Positions 35,312 through 61,198 are shown, numbered from the stretch's first letter. The stretch: DNA of 64,000 nt from a bacterium (GCA_030429765.1 JAUIER010000002.1:42126-106125), one strand, 5' to 3'. Notes: generated by a model from the letters alone, not told the origin. Translations and numbers: made by a program.

Positions 35312-35438
35312 TTTGACTTCGCCTCTTTTGATTAATTGGTGTTGAATGAAATCGTCAGGATTTGCCCCAAAAATTTCTATATATAGTAATATTTATAACG
35401 GTTTAGAAGAAATGGTACTATATTCGAAATGATTAGGC

Positions 35439-35467
35439 TTGTCAAGAATTTTGTCTTGGCCTATAAT
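35439..35467 (+). promoter_or_regulatory. Sigma-70-type promoter TTGTCA, 17 nt spacer, TATAAT, giving a near-leaderless transcript for the plus-strand membrane cassette
   Basis: TTGTCA at 35439-44 and TATAAT at 35462-67. The ATG at 35479 is only about 5 nt after the predicted TSS and has no RBS. Confidence 0.5.
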
Positions 35468-35478
35468 GAAACCAACTT

Positions 35479-36225
35479 ATGACACGAACCGCACCCCCTC
35501 AAAAGACTGAAAACCACTGCCAATACTATGTTTACGTCGCTGTTGGCGCATTGATTTTTGTCATAAGCTCCATTTTTGTTGTCCATTTTCAAGGCTTGAG
35601 TCCCCTCGACTTTGGACGATACCTGATGCATGCCTCCGACGATACCCATCACAATATCATCTTCTACCGGAAACTCCCACAGATTTCACTGAACGAACTG
35701 ATTTACCTGGGTTGGTTCCTGGGGGCTGCTGTGATTTTCGCAGGCTCGCGTCTATTGGCCGGCGTATCGTCGACTAAGACTCGAAGTTTGTCGATCTACC
35801 GCTCACTCGGATTGAGCTTATTGGGGATATTCCTCGTCATTCTCACTGGACAGCTCAGCGGACTGTCCAAGAAATGGAGCTATTACCTCGACAATTACAC
35901 GGTTAAATCAGAAGCCGAACGACTAAAGCTCACCTCCATCCGTCAGTCGTTGGAGATGGCGGAATTTTGCAAGCAGCTCCTGCCGGGCCCACATAAAGCC
36001 GATTTTGTCACCGATATGGACATGGACCATGGACCGAATATGCTATTGCATCGTAGCCTGGCTTTTCATCTGTATCCCATCGATATCCGTGATGTTCGCC
36101 AGCAGCGATCCGACAGTTGGATCGCGTTCAACAAGGCAAATGCCCGTGCACACATCCCGGAAGGATTCGAGCTGCTGGGCGCCCTGAATGACGAAAATGT
36201 AATAGCCGTCAGGATGAAACCATGA
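35479..36225 (+). CDS. 3-TM membrane protein with conserved C-terminal soluble domain (paralog A of a duplicated module)
   Basis: Paralogous to 38124..38837. Shared motifs include ...F(V/I)(T/S)DMD(M/I)..P(N/Y)ML(L/M)HR..A..LYPIDIR.V.... ATGA overlap with the next gene. Confidence 0.55.
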   Translation: MTRTAPPQKTENHCQYYVYVAVGALIFVISSIFVVHFQGLSPLDFGRYLMHASDDTHHNIIFYRKLPQISLNELIYLGWFLGAAVIFAGSRLLAGVSSTKTRSLSIYRSLGLSLLGIFLVILTGQLSGLSKKWSYYLDNYTVKSEAERLKLTSIRQSLEMAEFCKQLLPGPHKADFVTDMDMDHGPNMLLHRSLAFHLYPIDIRDVRQQRSDSWIAFNKANARAHIPEGFELLGALNDENVIAVRMKP

Positions 36226-37598
36226 CATTTGCAACCGCATGTGCATCTCTGCTATTGCCCATCACGCTTGGTGCCGTGTTGATACGCATCACAACTCGAA
36301 ACGATCCAATCCCCAAGCCATTGGCCGTGGCTTTAGGTTATGGACTTGGGACAGGCATCTTGACCCACTGGATGGTGATCGCCAATTTTACCGGAATGCC
36401 CCTTTCAGCCCCGGTAATAAACATCCCTCTCGGCATTGCGCTCGTCATCGGAATTGTTAGCCTGCTGCGCCAGTCACGCTCGGTCCGCCGGCTTCAACCA
36501 AATCGCGAACCGCCGGATATGATATCCATCGTGTGCGGATTGGTCATCCTCTTTGTCACCCATTTCATCTTATGGCGGGCCCTGAATTTTCCGATCTTCG
36601 CGTGGGACACTTTTTCTACAATGGGCCTCAAAGGCAAATCCATTTACTACGATCAAACCATCCGAAATCTGGCCTTTATCCCAAAGTTTGATTACCCAAT
36701 TCATATTCCGCTCTTAACGGCATGGATATCCTTCTGCATGGGCGAATGGAATAATACACTCAAAATCTTGTTCCCCTTGCCATGTTTCTTCTATCTGGTC
36801 ATTCAATACTACTTCCTGCGGGAATTCGCGGCCCGTCGCTGGGCGTTACTGAGCGTGGTGTTCCTGCTGTCCTGTAATTTCCTCATATACCATGCGACAA
36901 TTACCTATCGGGATATTCATATGATGTACTTTAATTGCTCAACGCTGCTGCTGATTGCATGGTGGTATCGGCGTCAATCCGGCGCGTGGTTGTTGTTATC
37001 TGCCGTCTTTGCCGGGCTGACCTCATTTATCAAGCTCGAAGGTTTTGGCTACATGGTTCTATACAACCTCCTGATGACCGTCTTGATTTGGTACAGGAAT
37101 GCTGAATCGGCCCGGGCCAAAATAATGAAGAATCTTGAATTTGCGCTTATCAGCGGCGGCATATACGCCATCTATCTGATCTATCGCATCTTTCACATCC
37201 TGCCCTATGCGGCCGGTCGCGACGAAGTACATGCCGAACACTTTTACATCAACAAGATTAATCTGGCGACGGGAGCCGAATTGTTGGAACGAATGGGAGT
37301 GGTTTTGATGCGCTACATCGAAAACTTTTTTATGAGCGGCAACTGGAACGTAATTCCGATCCTTTTTGTTTTAAGTCTATGGCAGATTTTTTTCAGCCGA
37401 AACCGCCATGTTGGCGTGGTGATGTTATTGTTTCTGGGATTGTTTTTTGGAATGTACTTTGTCACATTTTCGGCGACACAACATTACGTCTGGGTGGCCA
37501 AACAACATCATGTGCTATCCCGCTCAATATTGCATGTATTTCCCATTTTGGTCACCCTAACCATCCTGTTAAACGCGGATGATCACTCTAAAACCTAA
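36222..37598 (+). CDS. Polytopic (about 11-13 TM) membrane protein, GT-C-like glycosyltransferase candidate (paralog A)
   Basis: Paralogous to 38842..40239: ALGYG(L/M)GTGILT, a W-D/aromatic-rich loop F(A/T)WD(T/A)(F/Y)S..G(L/F)K(G/A)K, YH(A/S)TI(T/S)YRDI, and FF(M/S)SGNW(N/S)VI. Family assignment is an inference. Confidence 0.55.
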   Translation: MTFATACASLLLPITLGAVLIRITTRNDPIPKPLAVALGYGLGTGILTHWMVIANFTGMPLSAPVINIPLGIALVIGIVSLLRQSRSVRRLQPNREPPDMISIVCGLVILFVTHFILWRALNFPIFAWDTFSTMGLKGKSIYYDQTIRNLAFIPKFDYPIHIPLLTAWISFCMGEWNNTLKILFPLPCFFYLVIQYYFLREFAARRWALLSVVFLLSCNFLIYHATITYRDIHMMYFNCSTLLLIAWWYRRQSGAWLLLSAVFAGLTSFIKLEGFGYMVLYNLLMTVLIWYRNAESARAKIMKNLEFALISGGIYAIYLIYRIFHILPYAAGRDEVHAEHFYINKINLATGAELLERMGVVLMRYIENFFMSGNWNVIPILFVLSLWQIFFSRNRHVGVVMLLFLGLFFGMYFVTFSATQHYVWVAKQHHVLSRSILHVFPILVTLTILLNADDHSKT

Positions 37599-37651
37599 AA
37601 GCTTGATTGGAATAACCTTGTCTGGCCCAAGAAAACCAATATAATAGCAAT

Positions 37652-38119
37652 ATGCGTATTGAAGAAAAATTATTTCAGGCCCTGAAAGAATCGTCCAAGA
37701 CATTGGCCCTGGCGGAATCATGCACGGGAGGATTGATCGGTCATCGGATCACCAACTTGCCGGGAAGCTCCGATTTTTTTATGGGATCAGCCGTCTGCTA
37801 TTCAAATGAGGCCAAAACACGATTGATCGGCGTACCCGAGGCCACACTAAAAAAACACGGCGCCGTCAGCACAGAAGTGGCGATCGCCATGGCCAAAGGC
37901 GCCCGAAAAAAATTTCGCGCAGATTTTGCTTTGGGGATTACGGGCATTGCGGGACCCGCTGGCGGGACGGTCAAAAAACCGGTAGGACTTGTCTACATCG
38001 CCGCCGCCTCTCACAATGAATGTATCTGCCTTCAATATGAATTCACAGGCGATCGAACATCAATCAAAAAGCAAGCCAGTACGAAGGCGCTGCATTTGTT
38101 GACGGAATTTATATATTAA
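37652..38119 (+). CDS. pncC: CinA C-terminal domain protein / nicotinamide-nucleotide amidohydrolase PncC-like
   Basis: LALAESCTGGLI...GITGIAGPAGG... is the CinA signature. Confidence 0.85.
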   Translation: MRIEEKLFQALKESSKTLALAESCTGGLIGHRITNLPGSSDFFMGSAVCYSNEAKTRLIGVPEATLKKHGAVSTEVAIAMAKGARKKFRADFALGITGIAGPAGGTVKKPVGLVYIAAASHNECICLQYEFTGDRTSIKKQASTKALHLLTEFIY

Positions 38120-38123
38120 AACC

Positions 38124-38837
38124 ATGAATAGCGCACGCAATATCACTATCTTCTGCATTCTGTCTGTCGTGATCGGCATGGTGATTGCGCCCTATATCAT
38201 GCCGACCGGTGATATCAAAAACCCCCTCCTCTTATTCGGCGAATTCGCGCGTAACGGTTATTACTTTAATCATAATTATGTGAATCCCGCCGTCGTTCAC
38301 AAAGTCAGCTTCCAGAAATACCTGTACTTCCTGTTTTTTATCGGAGTGATATTGTTTCTTTGCCTCAATATTATCCTGCGCCGTCGAGTCTTTAACGCCT
38401 ACCGTACTATGCTCCATCTCGGCATTATCCTGTTTATCCTAACCAGTATGGTTCAAATTTTTAATTTCTATGCATATTATTTGAGTGAACGCGATGCCTT
38501 TTATGGTCGATCCCTTCTTGAAAGCAATCTTGAGATCAACCGTACACCGCATAAACGTCTGACATTCGAATACAGCCTATTCTGTCATCAACACATTAAA
38601 GGTCCAGCCCGGGCGAAGTTCATCTCTGATATGGATATCAACCGGGATCCTTACATGTTAATGCACCGGATGATGGCCTATTACCTGTATCCGATTGATA
38701 TCCGACATGTTCATCCCGGTGAACCGGAATATCTTCTGTTTTTCTTAAAAAAAGACCCGGAGCAAGCTGTGCCCGCTGACTATGAAATCATTGCCCGGCA
38801 AGGCACAAACTTTTTAATCGCCCGGAAAAAGCAATAA
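38124..38837 (+). CDS. 3-TM membrane protein, paralog B of 35479..36225
   Basis: Same architecture and shared C-terminal motifs (KFISDMDINRDPYMLMHRMMAYYLYPIDIRHV). Confidence 0.55.
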   Translation: MNSARNITIFCILSVVIGMVIAPYIMPTGDIKNPLLLFGEFARNGYYFNHNYVNPAVVHKVSFQKYLYFLFFIGVILFLCLNIILRRRVFNAYRTMLHLGIILFILTSMVQIFNFYAYYLSERDAFYGRSLLESNLEINRTPHKRLTFEYSLFCHQHIKGPARAKFISDMDINRDPYMLMHRMMAYYLYPIDIRHVHPGEPEYLLFFLKKDPEQAVPADYEIIARQGTNFLIARKKQ

Positions 38838-38841
38838 ATCT

Positions 38842-40239
38842 ATGTCATTTGTAACCTTCACATTAACCGCCGTCATTTTTCCGACAATAATCGGATACAT
38901 CCTCATCCGTCGATTACTGCCATCCATCACCCTGCCAACGGGAGTATGGATCGCCCTGGGATACGGTATGGGGACTGGCATATTGACACAATTGATGCTG
39001 CTTCTGGCTATTGGTAAAGTACCGCTAACCCTGGCCCCAATCGCCATCGGAATGTTGAGCATCGGACTTTTGGCGCTCATCAAGCGAAACAGCAGCTCCG
39101 AACGGATTCAACTCAATCCCAGATTGCCGGACCCCGATCAAAAGATCGATCTGATCTCCGTGTTTTGCAAAAGTTACATTATATTGTGCGTCCTCTACGT
39201 CATCTTTCGTGCGATTCACATCCCCCTCTACACGTGGGATGCCTATTCATGTAATGGTTTCAAGGCCAAGGCCCTTTATTTCGAACAATCCCTGAGCCTG
39301 CTGCATAACATGCCGCATTATGAATACCCGCTGCATGTGCCGTTCCTTCAGGTATGGGCGTCGATTTCGGCCAACATGTGGCATGACCAGTGGATCAAAA
39401 TCTTCTTTCCGCTTTACACACTCGCGCTGATCACGGTCCTGCATTTCACGTTGCGTCTGCACGTATCCAAGCAATGGGCCCTGTTTGGGCTCGCTGTGAT
39501 CTTGTCATCCAATCTGTATGTGTACCATTCCACAATTTCCTATCGGGATATCACATTGGCCTACTACGTCAATACCTCCATCGCCATGCTGCTGCTCTGG
39601 ATGAAGTCGCGGCAAAATTCGTTGCTCCTGACAGCTGGAATTTTTACAGGATTTGCGACGTTCGTCAAGCTTGACGCGGCAGGCTATTTGCTTGTCCTTA
39701 TGTCGATGATGTTTTTCCTCGTTGTCTTTGACCGATCGATGAAACTTCCGGCGAAAGTCCGCCATTTCTTTCTCTTTACCCTGCCGGCCGTGCTGATTTG
39801 TCTGGTGTATAACATCTACAAAATCCTGGTCATCGAGCCGCGTATTCCGGCTGTTGAGGGCGAAAAAATGAGCTTCGATCTTTTTAGTGTGAAGATCAAA
39901 CTGGGATTAGATACCTTGGTGAAACTGCAGACCGTACTGGGACGGATTTTTGAAAATCTCTTCTTCAGCGGTAACTGGAGCGTTATCTGGCTGCTGTTTG
40001 CCATCAGCCTGATACATTTGCGTTCCATCAAAGTCACCGCGGAAATTCGTATACTCCTCTATGCCATCGTCGCGTTTATGGGAATCCAAATCCTCGGATA
40101 CACGCTCACGCAGTATTATTTCTGGATCGCGCAGACCAACACGAGCCTCTCGCGTCACCTGCTGCACTATTTTCCCATTGTTGTTTCTCTAATGGTTTTG
40201 ATTAATGGAGGGGAATTAGTTGATCAGTCGGACGACTAA
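38842..40239 (+). CDS. Polytopic membrane protein, GT-C-like candidate, paralog B of 36222..37598
   Basis: 465 aa, collinear similarity to paralog A across the whole length. Confidence 0.55.
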   Translation: MSFVTFTLTAVIFPTIIGYILIRRLLPSITLPTGVWIALGYGMGTGILTQLMLLLAIGKVPLTLAPIAIGMLSIGLLALIKRNSSSERIQLNPRLPDPDQKIDLISVFCKSYIILCVLYVIFRAIHIPLYTWDAYSCNGFKAKALYFEQSLSLLHNMPHYEYPLHVPFLQVWASISANMWHDQWIKIFFPLYTLALITVLHFTLRLHVSKQWALFGLAVILSSNLYVYHSTISYRDITLAYYVNTSIAMLLLWMKSRQNSLLLTAGIFTGFATFVKLDAAGYLLVLMSMMFFLVVFDRSMKLPAKVRHFFLFTLPAVLICLVYNIYKILVIEPRIPAVEGEKMSFDLFSVKIKLGLDTLVKLQTVLGRIFENLFFSGNWSVIWLLFAISLIHLRSIKVTAEIRILLYAIVAFMGIQILGYTLTQYYFWIAQTNTSLSRHLLHYFPIVVSLMVLINGGELVDQSDD

Positions 40240-41111
40240 CCCTTGGTCAGATATAAATTGATATATCGCTCACCTGAACACATGCTGATCATTTCCGCAT
40301 GGCTCATCCGTGTTACTTCTCTTTTATGATCATTGATGACTGAAATCTCAAATCCATATGATTCCAACTGGGCAAGAAATTGTTCGGCGGTATATTCATA
40401 GCTTTGGTAGACACAGGGGAAAAACTCGCAGAAGGCGATCAGTTTGGACTGACGCGCGATTAAGGTCTCCATCCCCTTCAGCGCCAGAGGTTCGGCGCCC
40501 TGAATATCAATTTTAATCACATCAATGCGAAGATCATCCGGCAGCAGGTCATCGAGTTTGACGGCCTTCACCGAAACAGATTTACGATTGTCTCCGGAAT
40601 CAAAGATCCGATGATCACCGCGGTTCTCTTCGCAGAAATAAAGTTTTAACTCACCGGGCTGATCGGACACGGCATTCTGAAACAATTTAACGTTCGCGCA
40701 TTGATTCGCTTCCACATTCTTCGTAAGCAGCCGGAAATTTTCTGGATCGGGCTCAAACGCGAATACCTGCCCGCCCGCGCCGACCTTCTTGGAAATCTGC
40801 AGGGTGTGATAACCAATATTCGCCCCGATATCCAGCACATTCATGTCAGGCTGTATCGTGGAGTTCATCAGTGAAGTCTCATAGTCTTCTAAGGTCGAAT
40901 ATTTCCACAAAAACATCGCGGCAATACGGTCGAGCGTGTTGCCATACATCTTCATACCTTTGACATTGATACAACGGTCGGACTTCTGCTTAAAAAACTT
41001 GGCCAGTCCACGCAGTATCGGTTTGAACCAGTGCAGCTGGGATAGGACATAAAGGCCTCTTAAAATACTGTAGGCGATTGATTTGATGATGTAGGACGGA
41101 GAAATTTTCAT
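40236..41111 (-). CDS. FkbM-family SAM-dependent methyltransferase
   Basis: VLDIGANIGYHTL...VFAFEPDPENF...IDVIKIDIQGAE is the Methyltransf_21/FkbM pattern. Tail-to-tail 4-nt overlap with the plus-strand cassette. Confidence 0.8.
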   Translation of the reverse strand: MKISPSYIIKSIAYSILRGLYVLSQLHWFKPILRGLAKFFKQKSDRCINVKGMKMYGNTLDRIAAMFLWKYSTLEDYETSLMNSTIQPDMNVLDIGANIGYHTLQISKKVGAGGQVFAFEPDPENFRLLTKNVEANQCANVKLFQNAVSDQPGELKLYFCEENRGDHRIFDSGDNRKSVSVKAVKLDDLLPDDLRIDVIKIDIQGAEPLALKGMETLIARQSKLIAFCEFFPCVYQSYEYTAEQFLAQLESYGFEISVINDHKREVTRMSHAEMISMCSGERYINLYLTKG

Positions 41112-41133: not shown

Positions 41134-41859
41134 TTATTTCTCCGCCTTGACATAAAGTGATCCGGCTATTTCTTTGAGGATGGGAATTTTTTCGACGGTT
41201 CGGCCCAGCCCATTGACGAAACCGATCAGACTCTTGGGTGTTCCCGGATGCAGGAAGTCAAACAGCTGGATATGAACATTCTTAAAACCAAATGATTCGA
41301 TCTGGGCCTTGAGCTTCCAGCGGATAAACGCGATTTCATCCGGCGAGACATGCATCTTTTTCTGGAGATAGGGTATGCGCCGTTCAAGAAAAATCTGCGG
41401 ATTCATCAGGTTCGGCTCGGTGAAGTACATCGATCCGCCCGGCTTAAGCACCCGGTAACATTCCTTGAGGGCCTGATCGACCTCCAGGTGATGAAGAACT
41501 GAACTTCCAACCACCGAGTCAAAAGATTCGTCCTCATAGGTTAAATCATACGCATTCTCAACTTTGAATGTTACATTCTCCGCCGGAACACGGACTTTGG
41601 CCACATCGAGCAGTTCAGGTGAAATGTCATTGGCAATGATCGTCGCGCCGCTTTGCGCCAAATACTCCGTAAAGTATCCTACACCACAGCCCAATTCCAG
41701 GACATTCATATCTTCAGTAATATGTGATGTCAGCATCTTGACCCGGCGTTGCCAACGGATTTGTCCGGCCGGCGTCTCCCAGTACCAAAATGTACCCGAC
41801 CATGACTCGCGCAGATGCTTGCCATGTTCTATTTCATTTTTTATACGCTGGTCGGACAT
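41134..41859 (-). CDS. Class I SAM-dependent methyltransferase
   Basis: VLELGCGVGYFT (motif I)...LKPGGSMYF. Confidence 0.8.
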   Translation of the reverse strand: MSDQRIKNEIEHGKHLRESWSGTFWYWETPAGQIRWQRRVKMLTSHITEDMNVLELGCGVGYFTEYLAQSGATIIANDISPELLDVAKVRVPAENVTFKVENAYDLTYEDESFDSVVGSSVLHHLEVDQALKECYRVLKPGGSMYFTEPNLMNPQIFLERRIPYLQKKMHVSPDEIAFIRWKLKAQIESFGFKNVHIQLFDFLHPGTPKSLIGFVNGLGRTVEKIPILKEIAGSLYVKAEK

Positions 41860-41867
41860 TGAACGTA

Positions 41868-43301
41868 TTAGTCCTCACGTTTTTTATAGAATTCTTTACG
41901 AGGTACAAGGATCAGCTCGCGGAAACCGCGGAAACAGGCCGTCAGCAAATGAATCCCGTGCTGCAGCGATCGCATTTTAGACTCACCGGAAACTCGGGAT
42001 TTGTAATGCACCGGAACTTCCATGATCTTGCTCCCCATCTTGGCCGCCCCGAACAACAGATCAAAATCACCCCATTTGTCCTTGCCCCATTTCATCCGCT
42101 TGAAATCACGCTTATAAAGCGCCTTGGTCCCGCAGAGCGTGTCCGTCAAATTTTGTTGAGTAATGAAGCTCATAAGCCAACCGAAAATCTTGTTCCCGAA
42201 TAAATTGGTCATACGCATCGCCTGATCTTCCATCGGATACACCAGCCGGGTCCCATTGACAAACTGACACAGCCCCTTATTAAGAGGATCAAAAAAGCGC
42301 GGTAATTCTTCCGGCGGCGTGGAGATATCCGCATCCAGGATCATGATCACCTCTTCCTCGGCGGCATCAAATCCAGCCTTAACCGCCTGCCCCTTACCAC
42401 GATTCGGACTGTAATCGATCAGTTTAAGATTAGGAAATTCCCCCTGCAGCGACCTGACCTTATCAGCCGTTCCATCCGAACTTCCGTCATTGACAACCAC
42501 GATCTCTGTTCGCTTGCCCATCGACGGCACCCGTCGAATCGCGTCTTCGATATTTCCCTCTTCGTTGTAGCACGGAATGATGACCGAACAGCCGTAGCCC
42601 AGATCGACCTCGTTCTTGGGTTCCGGTTGGATGGTGAGATATTGCGTGGAGGATAACTTGCTGAACGGCCACAAACGCACACCGACGGAATTCGCCAGGT
42701 ACGATAGGAGTGGAATATTCTTGGGGAACAGCAATAGGTGACCATAGTAACTGACATCAAAATCCATCAGTCCCAGCATTTTGACCAGACTTTTTCGCTC
42801 GATGAAGTTATGCGGGCCTTCCGGCATCTTGGCCTTGATCTTTTCCATAAACATCAGGACCGGATCCCACCACGGATTAATCGTCGTCAGAAAAATTTTG
42901 GTCGTCGGTTTGCAGAATCGATAGGCACTGCGGAAAATATCCTGAACATCATAAACATGGTCGACGACGTCAACCATGATGATATAATCAAACTTTTCGT
43001 CGATATCCAGATCCTCGGCCGGTGAGTGAATGAATTCATATTGAGGAAATTTCTCCCGGGCCAGTTTGACCATCTCCCCACTGATATCGACACCAACCCC
43101 CCGCGAAGGCTCCATATACGCCAGGATTTCTCCGGTTCCGCAACCGAACTCCAGCACCGAACTCCCCTTGGGAATCATACGTGACATAAACGCCTTGAGC
43201 GTGTTGTAATAGTAGGCGTTCTTCTTTTTCCAATGATCGTAATTGGGAGCGATCTTATCAAAATGCTCCCGGACTTCATCCTTGGTCATGATTGGACACA
43301 T
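41868..43301 (-). CDS. Fusion protein: N-terminal class I SAM methyltransferase + C-terminal GT2 polyprenyl-phosphate sugar synthase (Dpm1/ArnC/GtrB-like)
   Basis: N-terminus has VLEFGCGTGEIL. C-terminus has SVIIPCYNEEGNI...VVNDGSSDGT...ILDADISTPPEEL (DxD), typical of the GT2 Dpm1 family. The ATG at 43301 is preceded by GGAA. Confidence 0.85.
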   Translation of the reverse strand: MCPIMTKDEVREHFDKIAPNYDHWKKKNAYYYNTLKAFMSRMIPKGSSVLEFGCGTGEILAYMEPSRGVGVDISGEMVKLAREKFPQYEFIHSPAEDLDIDEKFDYIIMVDVVDHVYDVQDIFRSAYRFCKPTTKIFLTTINPWWDPVLMFMEKIKAKMPEGPHNFIERKSLVKMLGLMDFDVSYYGHLLLFPKNIPLLSYLANSVGVRLWPFSKLSSTQYLTIQPEPKNEVDLGYGCSVIIPCYNEEGNIEDAIRRVPSMGKRTEIVVVNDGSSDGTADKVRSLQGEFPNLKLIDYSPNRGKGQAVKAGFDAAEEEVIMILDADISTPPEELPRFFDPLNKGLCQFVNGTRLVYPMEDQAMRMTNLFGNKIFGWLMSFITQQNLTDTLCGTKALYKRDFKRMKWGKDKWGDFDLLFGAAKMGSKIMEVPVHYKSRVSGESKMRSLQHGIHLLTACFRGFRELILVPRKEFYKKRED

Positions 43302-43307
43302 AAGCCG

Positions 43308-44099
43308 TTATTTCCTGTCTCTGAGTTTTGCGAGTAAGCGCAATATTTCGATATACAGCCAAACCAGGGTCACCAAGAGTCCAAATGCGCCATACCATTC
43401 TAGATACTTTGGCGCTCCGTTCTGCGCCCCTTGTTCGATAAAGTCAAAATCCAAGACCAAATTCAGTGCGGCGATGGTCACGACGACCAGACTGAAACCG
43501 ATCCCAATCGGGCTGCTGCCCCATCGCATATCATAGAACAGATTCACATTGAACAAACTCGCCACGAATGTCACGACATAGAACAGACAAATGGCTCCGG
43601 TCGCGGCAAATACGCCTGCCCGAAACTTTTGCGTAGCCCGCACCAACCCGGATTTATATGCCAGCAGCAGCGCGAATAAAGTCCCAAAGGTCAATCCAAC
43701 CGCCTGGAAAACGATGCCGGGATACTGCATCTCAAAAAAGGCCGAGATCCCTCCGATCGCCAAACCTTCAAGCAAGGCATAAACAGGCCCGGTGACCGGC
43801 GCCCATTCCTTTTTAAAGGCCGTCACGATCGCCACAATAAAACCGCCAATCAGGCCGACCATCATAAATGTCATCACTGACTGAGGGGTGCCGACCGGTT
43901 CAGACGAAAAACCTTCCATCAACGGTGACACTTCCGTCATGAGCTTCCCCCACACCCATGAAGCCGTCATCATCAGTAGACCCAGAAGGACGAATGTCTT
44001 GTTGACCGTTCCCTGAATTGTCATCGGTTCACCGGATGACATGTTATAGTTCGACGTCTCAAACGCCGTTTGAGTCATCACTGGATTGGATGTTCGCAT
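43308..44099 (-). CDS. 7-TM membrane protein, possibly Bax-inhibitor-1/YccA-like
   Basis: 263 aa, about 7 predicted TM helices, and a C-terminal amphipathic charged tail. Family call is weak. Confidence 0.4.
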   Translation of the reverse strand: MRTSNPVMTQTAFETSNYNMSSGEPMTIQGTVNKTFVLLGLLMMTASWVWGKLMTEVSPLMEGFSSEPVGTPQSVMTFMMVGLIGGFIVAIVTAFKKEWAPVTGPVYALLEGLAIGGISAFFEMQYPGIVFQAVGLTFGTLFALLLAYKSGLVRATQKFRAGVFAATGAICLFYVVTFVASLFNVNLFYDMRWGSSPIGIGFSLVVVTIAALNLVLDFDFIEQGAQNGAPKYLEWYGAFGLLVTLVWLYIEILRLLAKLRDRK

Positions 44100-44108
44100 A
44101 TTACCCTC

Positions 44109-44564
44109 CTAAAAAACCACCGCCCACCGGATGGCGATGTGCATAATGATATTCGTATAAATCCCGGCCACCACATCGTCGGTCATAATTCCCAGACCGC
44201 CTTCAAATTCTTCAAATTTATTCACCGGGTAGAGCTTGAACATATCAAACGCCCGGAACAAAAAAAAGGCCGTGATGTATACGGTGAGATCGAGCGGCAA
44301 TAAAAACAACGCCAGCATAATCCCTGAAACTTCATCAATCACGACACATCCCGGATCCTTCTTATCGAGCAAATCTTCCATCGGACCGCTAACCAGCAAT
44401 CCCAATACCGTCACGGCAATTAGAACAAGTATATACGCAAAAGGCATATCTGCCAATAGGATGCATAACAAAGCCCCGGCAAAACTGGCCAGAGACCCCG
44501 GTGCGACCGGGAAATTGCCTATGTAAAATACCGTTGAGGTGATTCGTACAAAACCGTCAGACAC
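44109..44564 (-). CDS. pgpA: Phosphatidylglycerophosphatase A
   Basis: FYIGNFPVAPGSLASFAG...VVIDEVSG...GGLGIMTDDVVAG are the PgpA motifs. Confidence 0.88.
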   Translation of the reverse strand: MSDGFVRITSTVFYIGNFPVAPGSLASFAGALLCILLADMPFAYILVLIAVTVLGLLVSGPMEDLLDKKDPGCVVIDEVSGIMLALFLLPLDLTVYITAFFLFRAFDMFKLYPVNKFEEFEGGLGIMTDDVVAGIYTNIIMHIAIRWAVVF

Positions 44565-45141
44565 CGATAACCCTTCTATTGTTGAGGAAATAGGACACTC
44601 CCGATACCAGCGTCAGCGTAACCGCCACCAGGATCAGGTACTCGATGATCTCCATCCAGTAGTGCACCGATAATTCACTCCAATTTTTAAAACCGGTTGT
44701 TTCCGAGAAAACAACATAGATCAGAATCACACCCGCCGCGATCACCTGTGAGGCCGTCTTGTACTTCCCAAGCTTTTCCGCCGCAAGGACTTTCCCCTTT
44801 GATTTAGCATTGATCCGCATAATCGTGATAAAAACCTCACGCCCAAAAATGACCAAAAACGCCAGTACGGTCACCAGCCCCATCTTCACAAAGATCAAAA
44901 AGGCCGACAACATCAGGAATTTGTCCGCGATCGGATCCATTAACTTCCCGAAATCGGAGATCATATTGTGCTTCTTGGCAATGTAACCGTCATAAAAATC
45001 CGTAAACGAGGCGATAAAAAATATGATGGCTCCCATGAGCTTGGGGAAGAAACCCTCACCCGAGATAAACATAATAAACAGAACCGTCAGGACAATTCGG
45101 GAAATTGTCAACGTATTCGGTGATATCATTACGTAGGCCAT
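44557..45141 (-). CDS. pgsA: CDP-diacylglycerol--glycerol-3-phosphate 3-phosphatidyltransferase
   Basis: CDP-alcohol phosphatidyltransferase motif DFYDGYIAKK...G...DPIADK. Confidence 0.88.
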   Translation of the reverse strand: MAYVMISPNTLTISRIVLTVLFIMFISGEGFFPKLMGAIIFFIASFTDFYDGYIAKKHNMISDFGKLMDPIADKFLMLSAFLIFVKMGLVTVLAFLVIFGREVFITIMRINAKSKGKVLAAEKLGKYKTASQVIAAGVILIYVVFSETTGFKNWSELSVHYWMEIIEYLILVAVTLTLVSGVSYFLNNRRVIGV

Positions 45142-60950: not shown

Positions 60951-61034
60951 CTAAAATTTTAGTCATATGAACCGAAACTTGGCTTGCATAACTCAATTAG
61001 TTGCACAGTTTTTAAGCTGTACTAAAAATCAAAA

Positions 61035-61107
61035 TGCGCCTAGGTGGACTCGAACCACCCCACCAGCCTTAGGAGGGCCGAGCTCTATCCATCTGAGCTA
61101 TAGGCGC
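61035..61107 (-). tRNA. tRNA-Arg (anticodon CCT)
   Basis: Manually folded: acceptor GCGCCTA/TAGGCGC, D-arm GCTC..GAGC, anticodon stem CGGCC/GGCTG with loop CTCCTAA, T-arm GGTGG-TTCGAGT-CCACC, discriminator A. No encoded CCA. Confidence 0.85.
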
Positions 61108-61198
61108 AAAATTTTTTCGCAATCTAAACCGCCAGCCTATCATACTCAGCCTTGGGATGTGGTCCGTTTAGGTCAACTTCACCACACCAAATATCACC

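Follow-up and report, generated by a model that had tools for sequence, protein, structure and literature searches.

Paralogous S-L gene pairs at a bacterial locus encode a predicted GT-C glycosyltransferase and an orphan membrane partner

The 64-kb stretch of bacterial DNA GCA_030429765.1 JAUIER010000002.1:42126-106125 (64,000 nt, called the window in the following) carries two pairs of genes for membrane proteins on either side of a CinA-type gene. Each pair encodes a small protein, S, and a large protein, L, which is predicted to adopt a GT-C glycosyltransferase fold. A convergent operon behind the second pair encodes a methyltransferase fused to a family 2 glycosyltransferase (MT-GT2). Here we describe the two pairs, the relation between S and L and a possible origin of the sugar donor.

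The two S-L pairs and their paralogy

The features of the S-L block are given below (aa, amino acids; TM, transmembrane; EL, extracytoplasmic loop; motif positions in aa).

35439-35467, plus strand: sigma-70-like match TTGTCA-17-TATAAT, 11 of 12 consensus positions, with 11 nt between its end and the S1 ATG
35479-36225, plus strand: S1, small membrane partner, 248 aa (open reading frame listing, BLASTP against S2); TM helices at about 18-34, 75-87 and 112-124, C-terminal domain of ~125 aa predicted to be periplasmic; HHN 57-59, FVTDMD 176-181, LYPIDIR 198-204
36222-37598, plus strand: L1, 458 aa, predicted GT-C fold, paralog clade A; GxGxG helix 37-48, EL1 Asp D129 (nt 36606-36608), FDYPIH 156-161, YHATITYRD with D231, KLEG with K271, SGNW 372-375
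37618-37645, plus strand: sigma-70-like match TTGTCT-16-TATAAT, 10 of 12 consensus positions, with 6 nt between its end and the CinA ATG
37652-38119, plus strand: CinA-C/PncC-type nicotinamide-nucleotide amidohydrolase domain protein, 155 aa (Pfam, NCBIfam)
38124-38837, plus strand: S2, 237 aa, architecture as in S1; NHN 49-51, FISDMD 166-171, LYPIDIR 188-194
38842-40239, plus strand: L2, 465 aa, predicted GT-C fold, paralog clade B; EL1 Asp D133 in YTWDAYS 130-136, YEYPLH 160-165, YHSTISYRDI 228-237, FVKLDA 274-279, SGNW 376-379

An earlier note on this DNA had described the region as a tandemly duplicated two-gene membrane module, paralogous gene for gene and consisting of a 3-TM and a polytopic protein. 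The open reading frames of both pairs run exactly over the intervals it had named. L1 and L2 are 31% identical over the full length (BLASTP, E 4e-84), S1 and S2 are 28% identical over ~198 aa (E 4e-24). These similarities are far above chance and bear out the paralogy, and the three hydrophobic cores of S as well as the polytopic nature of L agree with that description. All motifs quoted in the note are located: ALGYGxGTGILT at aa 37-48 in L1 and 38-49 in L2, FAWDTFS at aa 126-132 in L1 as the counterpart of YTWDAYS in L2, YHxTIxYRDI at aa 223-232 and 228-237, respectively, and FxxDMD together with LYPIDIR in the S proteins.

A distance tree of L shows three paralog clades, two of which (A and B) are represented in the window. 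One related genome holds A, B and C, others hold A and C or B and two copies of C. The best matches of S1/L1 and S2/L2 are two different pairs of the genome with all three clades, i.e. both window pairs are matched by separate ortholog pairs elsewhere. Taken together, the separate ortholog pairs and the three clades indicate that the S-L pair was duplicated as a unit long ago. The wording "tandemly duplicated" thus stands for the paralogy of the pairs, whereas a recent tandem duplication is ruled out; the phylogeny that the note had proposed as a check identifies the copies as ancient paralogs.

L is part of a large family, with 1,174 proteins at E ≤ 1e-30 in a profile search over 1.84 billion representatives (clusters at 50% identity). 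Its named members come from Omnitrophota or PVC-labelled metagenome-assembled genomes and are annotated as "hypothetical protein".

S1 and L1 overlap by 4 nt (ATGA) with an AGGA 8 nt upstream, and S2 and L2 are separated by 4 nt, in line with the translational coupling that had been suggested for each pair. The gap between CinA and S2 is 4 nt as well, and the junction of L1 and CinA is found again in an independent assembly. The sigma-70 promoter postulated just ahead of the first pair corresponds to the 11/12 match; this one and the match in front of CinA are consensus pattern matches only. The latter may be where a CinA-S2-L2 transcription unit begins. At 35417-35467 two sigma-70-like matches of 11/12 point apart, to S1 on the plus strand and to ribBA on the minus strand. 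The palindromic CTTGTCAAG is common to both, so that their -35 hexamers overlap.

The gene between the copies is of the CinA-C/PncC type, as had been proposed (Pfam CinA 8.5e-59, TIGR00199 2.3e-47). In relatives CinA is located upstream of all S-L pairs and next to ribBA, often accompanied by a LigT-like gene, while in the window S1-L1 lies between ribBA and CinA. Based on this upstream, ribBA-adjacent position, CinA was rejected as a functional component of the module. We regard it as a syntenic bystander that is probably co-transcribed with S2-L2. A LigT-like 2',5'-RNA-ligase/phosphoesterase gene is found between CinA and S in loci L008, L009, L016, L018, L025 and L031 and is missing in the window. 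Likewise the window has no counterpart of a 783-aa protein without Pfam match that separates CinA from the first S-L pair of a related Omnitrophota genome (L001/L002, 1833-4184).

Fold, active-site landmarks and topology of L

The structure of L1 was predicted with AlphaFold using 18 homologs and results in a confident model (pLDDT 87.5, pTM 0.90). It displays the polytopic fold common to ArnT, PglB/STT3, PMT and Emb, and Foldseek concurs. According to the model, L is a GT-C fold protein of the ArnT/PMT type (GT-C_A), the structure being decisive where the sequence is nearly silent. Among the 31 core L members PMT_2 matches 14 at E ≤ 1 (best 1.3e-7) and PMT matches one (5e-7), and no further Pfam family is matched; two L relatives have a precomputed PF13231 match. 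The L proteins of the window are thus related to the PMT_2 family yet not recognised by its model as members. The earlier note had likened the large proteins to GT-C glycosyltransferases such as ArnT, PMT and PimE. The model, the Foldseek result and PMT_2/PMT as the sole families touched uphold the GT-C assignment in its ArnT/PMT-type part, whereas the similarity to the PimE type (GT-C_B) is weaker. Clear homology to a non-glycosyltransferase family, named beforehand as an argument against the assignment, is found by Pfam in none of the 31 core members. A match of the GxGxG helix of L to TM2 of an aquaporin (E 3) was dismissed as chance.

Enzymes of the GT-C/PMT clan share three landmarks: EL1 begins with an Asp, an EL2 Asp touches the sugar and an EL3 Lys(-Glu) touches the donor (PMC7801869). 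The EL1 Asp is D55 in CmArnT and D77 in Pmt1; in CmArnT D158 (EL2) contacts the sugar and K203 (EL3) the lipid-phosphate-sugar donor (PMC7801869). The EL1 Asp of L (D129 in L1, D133 in L2) is invariant in 31/31 and 18/18 sequences. In the L1 model D129 directly follows the helix 100-122 and is placed at the start of helix 129-144. Further residues invariant across the 31 sequences are Y158-P159, W168, H224, Y229, K271, N374-W375 and R434, while D231 and E273-G274 are kept in at least 90%. G43 and G45 of the GxGxG helix are invariant, too.

Both proteins show the same order of elements around the first Asp, namely TM1, LWQPD31E, juxtamembrane helix JM1 and YFEKP62 in E. coli ArnT (EcArnT) and TM4, FAWD129T, a helix and KFDYP159 in L1, with Y158-P159 facing K61-P62 and an offset of about 98 residues at both points. 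The hhalign alignment of the L profile with EcArnT was used for register only, being not significant (E 0.13); it puts D231 on EcArnT D135 and K271 on EcArnT K179, corresponding to an offset of 92-96. The numbering shift between ArnT of E. coli and C. metallidurans appears to be ~24.

The conservation of these residues bears on a reading in which L is a non-catalytic lipid-binding scaffold of GT-C fold, comparable to PIG-U/GAB1 of the glycosylphosphatidylinositol (GPI) transamidase, and S-L belongs to a different membrane machine. A scaffold of this kind is difficult to reconcile with an EL1 Asp, a candidate EL2 Asp and a candidate EL3 Lys-x-Glu that are invariant or nearly so in 31 sequences. 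Of these residues, the EL1 Asp alone is shared by every active enzyme (PMC7801869). We hold this reading to be highly improbable and treat L as a candidate enzyme.

The topology of L was deduced from the positive-inside rule. Inside loops of the 31 members contain 2.1-4.3 Lys and Arg per sequence, short outside loops 0.2-1.6, resulting in a clean alternation. Predicted are 13 TM helices with the N-terminus outside, the C-terminus inside and no soluble domain. All conserved motifs (W-D loop, YHxTIxYRD, KLEG) are hence predicted to face the periplasm. A cytoplasmic acidic loop, which the earlier note had named as speaking against its interpretation, is not borne out. Overall, L looks like a GT-C_A core of ~10 TM helices preceded by ~100 extra N-terminal residues, which form 3 TM helices with the invariant GxGxG.

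ArnT, the lipid A 4-amino-4-deoxy-L-arabinose transferase (GT83, PMT_2), resembles L in the succession of a TM helix, W-x-x-D, a juxtamembrane helix and [FY]-[ED]-x-P at EL1; in the non-significant alignment the candidate EL2 Asp and EL3 Lys also fall in register. Moreover, ArnT is partnered with an ArnC-like GT2, and ArnC is the closest solved relative of the GT2 domain in the window. In contrast to L, ArnT has 13 TM helices with a cytoplasmic N-terminus and its own C-terminal periplasmic domain, whereas L exhibits three extra N-terminal TM helices, an outside N-terminus, no soluble domain and the separate S. As L ends after the last TM helix and has ~100 additional residues at its N-terminus, it is not an ArnT (GT83) proper. 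The two systems also differ in their surroundings: ArnT has the ArnE/F flippase, of which no similar type is encoded at the window locus, and the GT2 of the window is fused to a methyltransferase. A further comparison is with PMT (GT39)/TMTC. PMTs possess a DE motif as well as a luminal MIR domain and act as dimers of GT-C subunits; in L both the MIR domain and the second acidic residue are missing, and its partner is not a GT-C protein.

The orphan partner S and its tie to L

S combines three hydrophobic cores with a C-terminal domain of ~125 residues that is predicted to be alpha/beta and periplasmic. This soluble domain is the best-conserved part of S rather than the TM helices. Conserved polar residues in or near the membrane are N59 and a Gln in TM3. 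The 31 members show no consistent Pfam match and no NCBIfam match at all, and the best E-value of a profile search against the PDB is 0.13. No description of S or the L family turned up in the literature.

A word-index homolog search under-reported the families (17 and 1-6 matches); an exhaustive profile search and a genome scan based on a 14-sequence alignment were used. The resulting sample comprises species-representative genomes (26 loci) and metagenomic contigs. Wherever the flanks of an L gene are sequenced (32 distinct genes), an S gene is its direct neighbour in the same orientation, upstream in 31 cases and downstream in one, and the commonest junction is an overlap of 4 nt (ATGA). 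Identities among S proteins follow those among L proteins (Mantel r 0.75), a value reached by 0/2000 permutations. In addition, a natural S-L fusion of 720 aa is found at an orthologous locus in two assemblies; its N-terminus matches S2 (E 3e-12) and the S profile (6e-38). The existence of the fusion implies that the C-terminus of S and the N-terminus of L are on the same side of the membrane, and both are independently predicted to be outside. S is thus an obligate, orphan and co-evolving partner, and the genetic evidence that it belongs with L is strong.

The association extends to Patescibacteria, in which an S-like gene (hhalign probability 96%, E 3.6e-9) is located upstream of a relative of L annotated as "GT39 family" by NCBI. 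In locus L033 (941-5822) this pair immediately precedes a prepilin peptidase gene along with several genes of the N_methyl (type IV pilin-like) kind, which hints at pilins as acceptors in this lineage. The arrangement varies in single loci. Two tandem S genes precede a single L in L021 (4491-7398). The order is reversed in L027 (920-2837), where a short S-like gene (E 1.2e-13) comes after L and the upstream position is taken by an RsmI-like gene instead. The gene upstream of the distant relative L034 is only marginally S-like (E 0.015) and was left uncounted.

PIG-X/Pbn1 is the accessory subunit of PIG-M/Gpi14. This GPI mannosyltransferase I is the closest analogy for S-L, with the differences that it is eukaryotic, has a single-TM partner unrelated to S and acts on a GPI precursor; no sequence relationship between the two systems is detected. 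We also considered that S might have split off from an ArnT-like ancestor as its C-terminal module (3 TM plus periplasmic domain). TM count and topology fit, but the hhalign match of the S profile to ArnT is noise of 17 columns, leaving this origin speculative.

Lipid-linked donor, proposed mechanism and neighbouring genes

The convergent operon downstream of L2 comprises the following genes.

40236-41111, minus strand: FkbM-family S-adenosylmethionine (SAM) methyltransferase (Methyltransf_21 1.2e-18; TIGR01444 5.2e-33)
41134-41859, minus strand: class I SAM methyltransferase (Methyltransf_11/25; Pfam 1.1e-27)
41868-43301, minus strand: MT-GT2 fusion, methyltransferase at aa about 7-185, GT2 at aa about 238-446 (Glycos_transf_2 8.3e-30)
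43308-44099, minus strand: BaxI_1 (Bax-inhibitor-1-like) polytopic membrane protein (Pfam 2e-79)

The GT2 domain of MT-GT2 is closest to ArnC (9.6e-19), the DPMS of Pyrococcus (1.5e-17) and GtrB (1.5e-12), all of which are polyprenyl-phosphate sugar synthases. Against the AglJ model MT-GT2 yields 1.7e-31, which is under the cutoff of that model. These matches uphold the reading as a Dpm1-like synthase fused to a methyltransferase given in the earlier note, and the two further methyltransferases it had seen in the operon turn out to be of the FkbM and class I types. The MT-GT2 is hence a candidate polyprenyl-phosphate-sugar synthase and the likely source of a lipid-linked donor. Its methyltransferase domain (41868-42420) has the NDP-aminosugar N,N-dimethyltransferases TylM1/DesVI among its nearest solved relatives (~1e-9), a similarity that hints at a methylated, maybe amino, sugar donor.

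A GT2 or MT-GT2 gene is located no more than 6 kb from the module in 14/27 loci, distributed over two genomic contexts. The recurrent map of the first consists of ribBA (minus), CinA, sometimes LigT and 1-3 S-L pairs, facing convergent methyltransferase(s), MT-GT2, BaxI, pgpA, pgsA and rimO. The second context contains gpsA, recN and pfk (L015, L017, L022). The recurrence of GT2 in this unrelated context suggests a functional link beyond inherited synteny.

On balance we consider it fairly probable that each S+L pair represents a two-subunit, periplasm-facing GT-C glycosyltransferase that is fed by a lipid-linked donor, likely from MT-GT2. L would be the catalytic subunit with its ArnT/PMT-type core of ~10 TM helices behind the 3-TM GxGxG extension. 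S would be its dedicated partner in a physical complex, anchored by three TM helices, and its periplasmic alpha/beta domain of ~125 aa may supply in trans what ArnT, PglB and Emb carry in cis, that is acceptor recognition or enzyme stabilisation. On the cytoplasmic face MT-GT2 and the two extra methyltransferases would produce a possibly methylated polyprenyl-phosphate sugar, which a putative flippase would carry across the membrane. S-L would then pass the sugar to a periplasmic acceptor, possibly an envelope glycan, a glycolipid or a protein. The paralogs A and B presumably differ in acceptor or linkage. The periplasmic glycosylation pathway proposed in the earlier note gains support from the predicted fold and topology, the landmarks and the ArnC/DPMS/GtrB-like GT2.

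Such a pathway would resemble the three-component systems of periplasmic glycosylation, made up of synthase, flippase and GT-C, in which paralogous GT-Cs give different specificities (PMC11127046). GtrA/GtrB/Gtr*, CsbB/GtcA/YfhO and the GT136 pentofuranose systems (PMC11127046) follow the same logic, with a cytoplasmic GT2 polyprenyl-phosphate sugar synthase and a periplasm-facing GT-C modifying an envelope glycan. At the S-L locus a synthase is encoded together with the GT-C in form of MT-GT2. The locus differs from these systems by the absence of a flippase gene, the extra obligate subunit S and the methyltransferases fused or adjacent to the synthase.

Several observations weigh against the two-subunit enzyme with a donor from MT-GT2. 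L1 matches no Pfam or NCBIfam model, and the PMT_2 (PF13231) match of L2 (16.0 bits, E 0.014) is below the gathering threshold of 26.1 bits. Neither single-sequence nor profile searches relate L to any PDB sequence. The comparison of L with EcArnT stays below significance as given above, so that the landmark mapping rests on register and motif with no significant alignment behind it. The model of S is poor (pLDDT 53), and the fold search returned generic helical matches only. The co-variation of S and L could partly be explained by shared genome phylogeny. A flippase candidate near the module, i.e. a small 4-TM (GtrA/SMR), MATE or Wzx-like open reading frame, is not found in the 64-kb window. 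Finally, 13/27 loci are without a GT2 inside 6 kb, and much of the association with MT-GT2 sits in one conserved syntenic block that also holds the unrelated housekeeping genes ribBA, pgsA and rimO.

The loci without a nearby GT2 and the shared syntenic block would be expected if L were a genuine GT-C and the MT-GT2 operon had nothing to do with it. Adjacency would then reflect inherited gene order, and the donor would be made elsewhere, either as another polyprenyl-phosphate monosaccharide or as a polyprenyl-diphosphate oligosaccharide as for oligosaccharyltransferase. The main context, a long conserved block in which CinA and pgpA are functionally unrelated as well, is in line with this. However, GT2 or MT-GT2 appears again beside S-L in the gpsA, recN and pfk context. 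Moreover, the GT2 belongs to the polyprenyl-phosphate synthases in particular, and such enzymes need a GT-C consumer, for which no other GT-C gene is available nearby. An unrelated operon seems rather unlikely to us.

The missing flippase bears on the role of S. S could be an acceptor protein glycosylated by L, or S and the three N-terminal TM helices of L could constitute a built-in device for flipping or delivery of the donor, which would explain the lack of a GtrA, SMR, MATE or Wzx-type gene nearby. The extension with the invariant G43 and G45 is specific to the family, the polar N59 and the TM3 Gln are conserved in or near the membrane, and every paralogous L keeps its own S. Speaking against a substrate, a fusion of enzyme and substrate would be unusual. 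Against a donor device, conservation is highest in the soluble C-terminal domain and not in the TM helices, and a 3-TM protein is unlike any known flippase family. We regard both variants as quite unlikely and keep S as a putative subunit of the glycosyltransferase.

A broader version of the two-subunit enzyme would combine these elements. S-L would then define a hitherto unrecognised heteromeric class of bacterial GT-C enzymes, widespread in Omnitrophota and reaching into Patescibacteria, with the acceptor domain placed on the 3-TM subunit. The helices of S and the GxGxG extension of L would handle the lipid-linked, possibly methylated donor, making a separate flippase unnecessary. In this full extent the proposal is unlikely.

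Most envelope glycans of bacteria are made or modified by GT-C enzymes, usually single polypeptides that include a periplasmic domain of their own. The enzyme class is known, while the obligate orphan partner S, the N-terminal extension of L and the methyltransferase-fused synthase are new. If S is a true subunit, it would be the bacterial equivalent of accessory subunits in eukaryotic GT-C enzymes and provide a way to acceptor specificity in uncultured, ultra-small bacteria of the Omnitrophota and the candidate phyla radiation (CPR), whose envelope chemistry is essentially uncharted. That methyltransferase and synthase are fused suggests that the lipid-linked donors might be methylated, which would be an unusual trait. 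Profile models for the S and L families could carry annotation to thousands of proteins.

Some features of the surroundings are worth adding. The stop codons of L2 and the FkbM-type gene overlap at 40236-40239, hence there is no intergenic room for a terminator between the convergent operons. The BaxI_1 gene directly precedes MT-GT2 and shares its operon. The two are neighbours in many but not all loci, and no other polytopic protein near the module is left without an assigned role. Genes of glycerophospholipid synthesis are found beside the module in both contexts, pgsA and pgpA in the window (44109-45141) and gpsA upstream of S in L015, L017 and L022. This could be coincidence or a hint at a lipid acceptor.

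S1-L1-CinA-S2-L2 is the sole sizeable block on the plus strand, as almost all other long open reading frames of the window are on the minus strand, and the GC skew is negative across the whole window. An Rfam scan at gathering thresholds shows no flavin mononucleotide (FMN) riboswitch upstream of ribBA and the riboflavin operon (35312-35478). The sole Rfam match in the 64 kb is a tRNA-Arg(CCT) at 61034-61108.

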